From an uncultured delta proteobacterium (GTDB lineage: Bacteria > Desulfobacterota > Desulfobacteria > Desulfobacterales > Desulfosarcinaceae): DNA of 32,000 bases. Numbering within the stretch: the stretch's first letter is position 1; the number at the start of each line of letters is the position of its first letter. Positions 13,205 to 13,347 of this stretch are shown in pieces. The stretch lies in assembly GCA_963716825.1 (NCBI GenBank), contig CAVQUU010000029.1, forward strand, positions 56,767 to 88,766, given 5' to 3'. The notes beneath the pieces were generated by a model. The model did no database searches, was not told the DNA's origin, and saw nothing but the letters and a program-made list of their open reading frames with translations. The position numbers and the translations under genes are program-made.

Positions 13205-13347
13205 GTGCCCGTTCACAAATGGTAGATTTTGGTTCAGGCCAAGGCCGCAGCGATGTTGAACCCACAGGCGCAGCAGCGCTACGTCGAGGATTTCAACTTA
13301 GCGAGAACGCCGGCCTGGACCAAAAGATGCCGTTTGTGGACGGGCAC
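13205..13347 (-). repeat. Copy A of a ~145-nt nested-palindrome intergenic element (MITE/REP-like or structured RNA)
   Basis: - Terminal arms: GTGCCCGTTCACAAATGG (13205..13222) / CCGTTTGTGGACGGGCAC (13330..13347).
- Second stem: TTTTGGTTCAGGCC (13227..13240) / GGCCTGGACCAAAA (13312..13325).
- Third stem: GTTGAA (13255..13260) / TTCAAC (13292..13297), enclosing hairpin 13269..13283.
- Homologous to 18437..18583. Confidence 0.8.

Follow-up and report, generated by a model that had tools for sequence, protein, structure and literature searches.

A palindromic repeat in the hgcA-hgcB spacer of a Desulfosarcina-related bacterium, a probable member of a MITE-like mobile family

The window analysed here is a stretch of 32,000 nt from an uncultured delta proteobacterium of the Desulfosarcinaceae (GenBank assembly GCA_963716825.1, contig CAVQUU010000029.1, positions 56,767 to 88,766), and it carries the gene pair hgcA-hgcB of mercury methylation on its minus strand. 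The spacer between these two genes holds a 143-bp palindromic element (copy A), and a second copy (copy B) lies between a thiolase gene and a 3-hydroxyacyl-CoA dehydrogenase gene of a minus-strand operon (Table 1). We consider it likely that the element is one copy of a family of non-autonomous mobile repeats of about 143 bp, similar to miniature inverted-repeat transposable elements (MITEs), which is widespread in Desulfobacterales and has related copies in Nitrospira. The evidence comes from the number and distribution of the copies, from target-site duplications, from occupied and empty sites in relatives, and from a fold whose base pairs covary on one particular strand.

Exactly two copies were found in the window, both by nhmmer and by our own covariance model, termed R1, run with its filters off. 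The R1 scores for the plus and the minus strand are 157 (E 4e-35) and 43 bits in the case of copy A, and 130 and 21 bits in that of copy B. The two copies align over their full length with 78% ungapped identity in the first 72 nt (BLAST: 77.5% over 151 nt, E 1.6e-26). A first-pass annotation, made from the window sequence, had described a rod-like palindrome in the hgcA-hgcB spacer with a second copy whose differences preserve the pairing, and this description held in detail. The alignment runs from end to end with all the listed shared blocks present, and the terminal arm reads, base by base, GTGC/GCAC in copy A and GTGT/ACAC in copy B. Likewise, the two T-A pairs of stem 2 in copy A (13229-13323 and 13230-13322) become G-C (18461-18558) and C-G (18462-18557) in copy B, and the insertions in stem 3 are paired, both sides being longer in copy B. 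Both copies also fold as long rods, with minimum free energies (MFE) far beyond those of shuffled controls on either strand.

One genome per species was scanned with the pattern TCCTCGACGTAG, a gap of 20-45 nt and CTGCGGCCTTG, which contains 23 invariant core bases, and at least 117 genome blocks were matched. Among the matches listed, nearly all belong to Desulfosarcina, Desulfatitalea, unnamed Desulfobacterales and metagenome-assembled genomes (MAGs) labelled 'delta proteobacterium', including Desulfosarcina alkanivorans PL12; the other listed matches are Candidatus Nitrospira defluvii, one Nitrospira MAG and single MAGs labelled as Gamma-, Alpha- and Proteobacteria. One MAG contributes at least 8 separate 8-kb blocks, and a match in Actinoplanes was discarded as a chance match in a coding sequence. 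The search for further copies by nhmmer, as outlined in the first-pass annotation, revealed a large family, with 176 copies in about 0.9 Mb of matched blocks. The unit is 143-147 bp long, copies varying by 1-2 nt, and its consensus, written in the direction of the upstream gene, is TA-GTGTCCATCCAGAAACGGCATCTTTCGGCCCAGGCCGGCGTTCTCGC..TTGAAATCCTCGACGTAGCGCTGCTACGCCTGCGGTTTCAA..GCTGCGGCCTTGGCCTGAACCAAAATCTACCATTTCTGGACGGACAC-TA. The Rfam search, also outlined there, gave the family no identity, yielding no match in the window at the gathering score and only noise for both copies at E up to 10. A plasmid collection contained no match to the element, the single match in a viral contig collection was a chance one within a coding sequence, and no description of the repeat family was found in the literature either by topic or by sequence words.

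The two Nitrospira copies (L090:4284-4412 from Ca. Nitrospira defluvii, and L057:5936-6083) are apparently orthologous, being located after the stop codon of a CTP synthase gene and before the next gene. They retain the family core, and their outer stems are wholly different yet still complementary. Between the two there is at least one compensatory change, from G-C to A-U in the third stem.

The structure was examined in an alignment of 108 distinct copies in the plus-strand orientation of the window, termed A3. RNAalifold folds A3 into one unbranched rod of 53 pairs, and 39 of these pairs show double compensatory changes, so the covariance model and covariation test foreseen in the first-pass annotation came out in favour of a conserved fold. 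Standard pairs fill 92.1% of the A3 cells, against 77.3% after shuffling and 35-44% when the partner is slid by 1-3 columns, and cells changed on both sides number 761, against 183 +/- 12 in shuffled alignments. The covariation score is 0.437, compared with 0.169 for shuffled and at most 0.105 for slid partners, and none of 500 shuffles scored as high. The columns of the two stem 2 pairs named above illustrate the pattern: columns 29/132 are occupied by UA in 65 copies and GC in 33, and columns 30/131 by UA in 31, CG in 30 and UG in 30. The outer stem is highly variable in sequence between copies with its pairing kept, as in the example of GGGCCGAATCAGAAG with CTTCTGATTCGGCCC. The blocks conserved at 90% or more that lie outside the search pattern are GGTAGAT, GCGAGAACGCC, AAGATGCC and the tandem GA/GA loop, which reads UC/UC on the gene-sense strand. 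A protein-coding reading was tried on account of one plus-strand frame that is open in 72 of the 108 copies, and it was rejected because length differences of 1-2 nt shift the register, the stems covary, and the long plus-strand ORFs (open reading frames) of the window simply run antisense through hgcA and the thiolase gene.

The two strands of the element are not equivalent with respect to pairing. With RNA parameters, the MFE of copy A is -85.8 kcal/mol (z -9.4) on the plus strand and -67.9 kcal/mol (z -4.4) on the gene-sense minus strand, and that of copy B is -87.3 (z -9.3) and -67.3 kcal/mol (z -6.1). Over the family the means are -79.4 and -61.7 kcal/mol, the plus strand folding better in 120 of 121 copies. 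DNA parameters give -42.9 (A) and -45.8 (B) kcal/mol on the plus strand against -38.7 and -37.9 on the gene-sense strand, that is, a gap of 4-8 kcal/mol compared with about 18-20 kcal/mol for RNA. Mispairs are distributed in the same direction. In plus orientation the 53 pairs contain 682 G·U and 96 A·C combinations (334 and 93 when pairs with a G·U majority are left out), G·U is the more frequent of the two at 38 pairs and A·C at 8, and columns switching between U-A and C-G pass through U·G in 30 copies and C·A in 2. Among close or orthologous copies, one-sided changes from a Watson-Crick pair led to G·U in 86 cases and to A·C in 22, beside 31 double changes, although these counts are not independent. 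Mutation bias on coding strands runs towards G and T and would give the opposite asymmetry; we therefore take the plus strand, which runs antisense to the upstream gene, to be the one on which pairing has been selected. The median length of the longest helix free of interruptions is 11 bp for the plus strand, compared with 8 bp for the gene-sense strand (20 and 8 bp in copy A), and in the hgcAB mRNA strand the rod is broken by A·C and U·C mismatches. The proposal of a long duplex acting within the hgcAB transcript did not hold in the form given. The gene-sense hairpin is stable, but its selection for an action in that mRNA is not supported, because the covariation marks the opposite strand and the mRNA rod is interrupted by mismatches.

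The hgcA-hgcB site itself could be followed through a graded series of relatives. The window spacer of 190 nt consists of the 143-nt element plus 47 nt, and the spacers of element-free relatives measure 9-38 nt, in agreement with the short spacer that had been expected without the element. L028 (HgcA 90% identical) has a spacer and an hgcA 3′ end like those of the window and a complete element identical to copy A at 140 of 143 positions. In L209 (HgcA 89%) only the first ~56 nt of the element are present, joined directly to the ribosome-binding region of hgcB in a spacer of 74 nt (L209:2710-2783), and this half-copy is a deletion derivative at the same site. The element is absent from L210 (HgcA 87%, spacer 9 nt, hgcA end GGATTCAATTAG), L211 (85%, 9 nt, GGATTCATTTAG), L213 (80%, 16 nt), L212 (79%, 19 nt, hgcA end GGATTCATGGGATAG followed by TGAAAAAC) and L128 (72%, 38 nt), and from all of 80 further metagenome hgcA loci with up to 72% identity, where the usual spacer is 9-12 nt. 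Because the relatives form such a gradation and L212 has a hgcA end identical to that of the window (GGGATAG), the element is an insertion at the hgcA stop codon, made in the common ancestor of a small Desulfosarcina-related clade, and not a decayed ORF. Taken together with the stem covariation, these element-free spacers bear out the earlier statement that structure has been selected and that the region is no degraded coding fragment.

Mobility is indicated by the flanks, among other features. On both sides the flank profile is TAnnTA, before GTG and after CAC, and within a copy the hexamer on the right flank, which is variable, is correlated with the one on the left. Exact repeats over all six positions were found in 5 of 64 canonical copies (TATTTA twice, TAGGTT, TAAATA and TAGCAA) against 0.26 expected, and 1000 shuffles never gave more than 4. 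The flank hexamers match at 2.69 positions on average, compared with 1.99 +/- 0.12 after shuffling (z ~5.7), and no signal of duplication was seen at 2, 4 or 8 bp (2-bp matches: 10 against 10.5 expected). This pattern is the signature of a 6-bp target-site duplication. Sites also differ in occupancy between genomes: L028, a syntenic Desulfosarcina MAG, carries one extra copy directly past the hgcB stop codon and another between acyl-CoA dehydrogenase and ACT-domain genes, both sites being empty in the window. Derivatives of 63 and 90 bp retain unchanged ends, the shorter one being flanked by TAACTC/CAACTC, and an insert-bearing subfamily with 22-24 additional nt before the apical block occupies at least 7 loci in several genomes. 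Tandem arrays consist of 2-3 units with a period of about 142-160 bp, and their internal units have a shortened 5′ arm in the outer stem or none at all. Between the two natures considered in the first-pass annotation, a structured RNA or a hairpin-forming mobile DNA, it is the latter that is favoured by the multiple copies, the 6-bp target duplications, the presence/absence differences and the truncated derivatives.

Insertions are strongly polar with respect to genes. By convention, the end that copy A has at position 13347, on the hgcA side, is called the left end of the element. A sense ORF of at least 100 codons ends within a few bases of the left end in 84 of 122 copies, and in 39 of those 84 (about 6 of the 39 being near-duplicate loci) the stop codon is made of TA plus the first base of the element, forming a TAG/TAA junction. 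An antisense ORF ends near the right end in 20 of the 122 copies, 2 of them with that junction. Rough gene calls around 139 copies gave a co-oriented upstream neighbour within 300 nt in 79 cases and an opposite one in 26; a median of 4 nt separates the stop codon from the element, and where two genes converge, the second one ends at a distance of 30-290 nt. This polarity cannot be due to the DNA target, because both ends of the element read TA-GTG. The upstream genes are complete through the end of their Pfam profiles and have unrelated functions; they include those for MaoC dehydratase, a MogA-type molybdopterin-binding protein, MTHFR, MnmA, an ABC ATPase, aldehyde dehydrogenase, ETF-alpha, glutamate dehydrogenase, a solute-binding protein and CTP synthase.

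Comparison of orthologous sites showed that element and flanks do not share one history. Copy A differs from its counterpart in L028 at 3 of 143 positions (97.9% identical), compared with 82.8% identity at hgcA third codon positions and 89.6% in the remaining spacer, and in most cases an element is also more strongly conserved than the non-coding sequence that follows it. Sites orthologous to copy B were found in L001, L007, L009, L020, L058 and L099. At this thiolase site, strains with 99.8% identical flanks have elements that are only 84% identical, and the whole intergenic region between the thiolase and dehydrogenase genes (window 18287-18583 against L009, L007 and L099, comprising the element and a 150-nt spacer) is 79-84% identical where the flanking genes reach 99.8%. 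Between L009 and L099 the element is 98.6% identical and the flanks 89% and 75%, whereas between L009 and L007 the flanks are 98.7% and the element 80% identical. Because of this discordance, the alleles of the element appear to be converted, exchanged or re-inserted separately from the DNA around them, and an attempt to derive purifying selection from orthologues was abandoned for the same reason.

Table 1. Coordinates of the element copies, their parts and neighbouring genes (window positions unless a locus is named)
Feature	Position	Strand	Remarks
Element copy A	13205..13347	+ (better-folding strand)	143 bp, hgcA-hgcB spacer
Element copy B	18437..18583	+	147 bp, between thiolase and 3-hydroxyacyl-CoA dehydrogenase genes
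hgcA	13347..14555	-	CdhD domain, NVWCAAGK cap-helix motif; homologues named HgcA by their sources
hgcA stop TAG	13347..13349	-	Third base is the first base of the element (G)
hgcB	12860..13156	-	Two 4Fe-4S ferredoxin motifs, C-terminal CC
Remaining hgcA-hgcB spacer	13157..13204	-	48 nt (47 if the G shared with TAG is counted in the spacer); hgcB ribosome-binding site
Thiolase gene	18583..19818	-	5′ neighbour of copy B in minus-strand operon
Thiolase stop TAG	18583..18585	-	Aligned position equals that in copy A
3-Hydroxyacyl-CoA dehydrogenase gene	17438..18286	-	On the far side of copy B from thiolase
Outer stem, 5′ arm (P1/P1b)	13205..13224	+	Pairs with 13328-13347; A3 columns 4-24 with 137-158, all vary, mostly double compensatory
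Outer stem, 3′ arm	13328..13347	+	Partner of 13205-13224
Tandem GA/GA 2x2 loop, GA	13225..13226, partner GA 13326-13327	+	A3 columns 25-26 and 135-136, about 90% or more conserved
Internal-loop block CAAGGCCGCAG, invariant	13240..13250	+	In search pattern; also in Nitrospira copies with other stems
Internal-loop block GCGAGAACGCC, facing CAAGGCCGCAG	13301..13311	+	Outside search pattern; at least 90% conserved in A3
Apical region CAGGCG(C/T)AGC - loop - GCTACGTCGAGGATTT	13265..13293	+	Part (CTACGTCGAGGA) in search pattern
Tandem arrays	L050:5864-6306, L104:5082-5317, L094:7568-7869, L125:5303-5587, L079:1574-1844 and 4370-4570		

Some further observations were made around the two copies. The last 21 nt before hgcB (window 13157-13177; gene strand: GGATTCACTTAGGAGAGAACC) are closely similar to the 3′ end of hgcA with its spacer in relatives that lack the element (L210: GGATTCAATTAGGAGAGAACC), so that GGATTCA flanks the insertion on either side. 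This arrangement suggests that a duplication took place or that two hgcA-end alleles recombined, and the likeness to an L210-type hgcA end makes the history of the site more complicated than a single clean insertion. Upstream of hgcA, a gene for an arsR-family helix-turn-helix protein (97 aa) is directly adjacent in L028, L209, L210, L211, L212 and L128 (for example L209:1169-1459 and L028:1970-2260), and it is absent from the window (14556-14772) and from L001. In both of the latter the hgcA start and the stop codon of a 70-aa membrane-protein ORF are separated by 4 nt, from which a deletion of about 620 bp follows, and the loss of arsR may outweigh the hairpin for the regulation of hgcAB. 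In L213 (2725-3020) the hgcB frame is uncalled and looks frameshifted, so it may be a pseudogene or an assembly error. Past the hgcB stop, at a distance of about 20 nt, there is an A/T-rich hairpin (window 12782-12841, 27% G+C, TTGAATGAAGGCATTCATTCAA on the gene strand), which is probably the operon terminator; the corresponding region of L028 also contains the extra element copy mentioned above. Around copy B, near-identical contigs exist in several metagenome assemblies, and two of them end at or beside the copy. The stretch from copy B to the dehydrogenase gene contains three GCTATCAG repeats (window 18397-18430; gene strand: CTGATAGC), which are kept in L001, L002 and L009 and may be a binding site for a regulator. 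Within the 3′ end of the thiolase gene, a stretch of about 12 C (window ~18614-18626; G in the coding strand) varies in length among related contigs (GGGGGAGG compared with a GGGGAGG context) and could be a site of slippage or assembly error.

How such an element might spread can be outlined as follows. Mobility would need the single strand of plus polarity to be folded, most simply as a single-stranded DNA intermediate or an extruded hairpin, and the conserved loops might be read by an enzyme that makes a 6-bp staggered cut. In genomes of 55% G+C, stop codons may be among the few TA-containing sites that tolerate an insertion; TA plus the first G of the element would rebuild TAG, and copies could accumulate there because the insertion is harmless and the stop codon is regenerated. 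The polarity might then come from a strand-specific insertion step, or else from purifying selection against the opposite orientation, in which the mRNA would contain a near-perfect helix with up to 20 uninterrupted bp, a likely substrate of RNase III. In the case of hgcAB, the insertion would have lengthened the spacer from about 10-40 to 190 nt and placed an imperfect hairpin of -68 kcal/mol in the presumed transcript. It is plausible, by analogy with REP, ERIC and Correia repeats, that copy A could protect the 3′ end of hgcA or lower the expression of hgcB. The RNase III, attenuation or uncoupling effect put forward in the first-pass annotation would likewise be a plausible side effect. Copy A is not a dedicated regulator of hgcAB, however, and looks like a passenger.

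Nearly all copies are found in transcribed sites right after stop codons and in one orientation to the gene, as might be expected if the host had recruited the element as a cis-acting mRNA module, which would stabilise the upstream message or be cleaved by RNase III and so set the HgcA:HgcB ratio. The gene-sense hairpin is indeed still very stable (z -4.4 and -6.1 in the two window copies), however both the covariation and the wobble statistics mark the opposite strand, and the mRNA strand has at least 5 conserved A·C or U·C mismatch positions, with a longest helix of 7-8 bp. An mRNA module would also fit the conservation of copy A (97.9% against 82.8% at hgcA third positions), the frequent advantage of elements over their downstream flank, and the precedents of ERIC and Correia as well as REP repeats (PMC3733652). 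Since scans around copies A and B found no promoter or terminator consensus in or beside them, read-through into hgcB is plausible as well. On the other hand, the associated genes share no function and the element is not specific to hgcAB, relatives with 9-nt spacers manage without it, and copies decay or become truncated, as seen in the outer stem of copy B and the half-copy of L209. We therefore hold recruitment as an mRNA module to be improbable.

The strand asymmetry, being larger with RNA than with DNA parameters, could alternatively reflect a structured RNA of plus polarity, namely a small antisense RNA family opposing the 3′ end of the upstream gene, or an RNA intermediate of transposition. 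Conserved G·U pairs and a tandem GA/GA loop are motifs often met in RNA, and the core is kept across phyla with re-paired stems in Nitrospira. Against this, no promoter-like site was found in or by the copies, the flanks that would need to hold a promoter are unrelated between the copies, no terminator follows the plus-strand hairpin, and Rfam contains nothing similar; moreover, most copies are located between two genes of the same direction, a position for which no antisense transcript would be expected, and this explanation seems to us distinctly improbable. As to a REPIN/REP-type repeat mobilised on single-stranded hairpins by RAYT, a tyrosine transposase of the HUH type, the likeness comprises a strand-specific hairpin, an extragenic position by ORF 3′ ends, the donation of TAG and REP-like tandem clusters (PMC3733652), and the apical stem, like GGTAGA, contains GTAG/CTAC motifs. 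The unit, however, does not consist of two inverted REPs of 20-40 bp, and its arm blocks CAAGGCCGCAG and GCGAGAACGCC are not complementary. It also has neither an unpaired terminal GTAG or CGTC tag nor a preference for G before the flanking TAG, and its 6-bp duplications are not made by elements of the HUH/RAYT type. No RAYT-like gene, either multicopy or flanked by the element, was noticed in the loci, where no systematic search for one was made. A REPIN origin is hence scarcely credible.

Several points nevertheless weigh against reading the family as MITE-like mobile DNA. An autonomous partner, or a transposase gene with matching ends, was not found in about 1.2 Mb of loci. Arm-like 15-mers outside the copies belonged only to short derivatives and to a fragment beside a livH-like permease gene, long inverted repeats 0.7-3.5 kb apart were solely pairs of element copies, and all-against-all clustering of 1289 ORFs gave no multicopy transposase-like family. 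The ISDol1 group, which makes duplications of 6-7 bp, was a lead that nothing confirmed. Recognisable duplications are kept by a minority of copies only, and no nucleotide-exact empty junction was obtained, since all comparisons of filled with empty sites are between species, whose flanks are too diverged. The terminal arms are kept as pairing and not as sequence, which is unusual for a MITE of the DDE type, whose ends are normally transposase-binding sites, and we know of no characterised bacterial transposon family in which target duplications are combined with a single-stranded hairpin intermediate. The conservation of the seeded core blocks is partly circular, because the scan itself started from the 23 invariant core bases. 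Finally, the conservation of copy A could point to constraint in place or to a host function, yet we do not take it as proof of function because the alleles exchange independently.

Three features are left unexplained, namely ends that are conserved in structure only, selection on the strand antisense to the adjacent gene, and the same end always facing the stop codon. It is conceivable, if unlikely, that the family represents a new mechanism of transposition, where a single-stranded hairpin of about 143 nt and fixed polarity, in the form of DNA or RNA, is recognised by its conserved internal loops and not by its terminal sequences, and is inserted through a 6-bp staggered cut, always in one orientation, at stop codons of transcribed genes, possibly by coupling to the termination of transcription or translation. 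Target duplications together with structure-only ends and one-strand wobble, in combination with polar placement at stop codons, are an unusual set, which may point to an uncharacterised insertion mechanism. For mercury methylation, the consequence is that a Desulfosarcina-related clade has a 143-bp hairpin between hgcA and hgcB, and that the window lacks the arsR-type regulator in addition; given both changes, the presence of hgcAB in a metagenome may not predict equal expression of the two genes. The element-free hgcAB alleles at 85-87% identity are natural controls for this question. For annotation, the family accounts for breaks in contigs and for long, highly structured stretches between genes in Desulfobacterales MAGs, and R1 could be used to mask such stretches.

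To our reading the family is previously undescribed, and it is comparable in kind to the small palindromic intergenic repeats, such as REP, ERIC, Correia and MITE-like elements. ERIC and Correia/NEMIS are imperfect palindromes of about 100-160 bp in transcribed intergenic regions, often touching stop or start codons and forming RNA hairpins that alter the fate of the mRNA, and for Correia an effect of RNase III has been demonstrated. Compared by description and not by sequence, our element differs in duplicating 6 bp, whereas the ERIC and Correia families duplicate TA, and in occurring in another clade of hosts. An integron attC site was dismissed, as inspection by eye revealed no GTTRRRY core at the ends and the neighbours are housekeeping genes in conserved synteny. 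The palindrome-associated elements (PATEs) of the IS200/IS605 insertion sequences share mobility through single-strand hairpins, recognition of structure and strand-specific insertion. They have two subterminal hairpins, make no duplication and insert 3′ of a fixed tetra- or pentanucleotide, in contrast to the one rod and 6-bp duplications seen here, and an IS200/IS605-type element is ruled out by the single rod and the duplications, the target not being fixed on the left flank alone. REPs are found no further than 20 bp from the 3′ ends of ORFs, to which they often contribute the TAG stop codon, and the REP/REPIN-RAYT system resembles our family in this extragenic location, with unidirectional or convergent neighbouring genes, as well as in its TAG supply, its clusters and its strand-specific hairpins (PMC3733652). 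What sets the element apart from this system is the 143-bp unit, the non-symmetrical conserved loops, the target duplications and the missing terminal tag. As for a parent insertion sequence of the MITE kind, the arms of the element are complementary but variable, and no insertion sequence with such ends was present in the loci examined. The element departs from typical MITEs in having ends conserved as pairing only, internal loops as the most conserved part, selection on one strand and polarity towards genes; what it has in common with them is a small, non-coding, multicopy unit that stays below the usual limit of about 500 bp, with inverted-repeat arms, fixed 6-bp duplications at an A/T-rich target, polymorphic occupancy and deletion derivatives.

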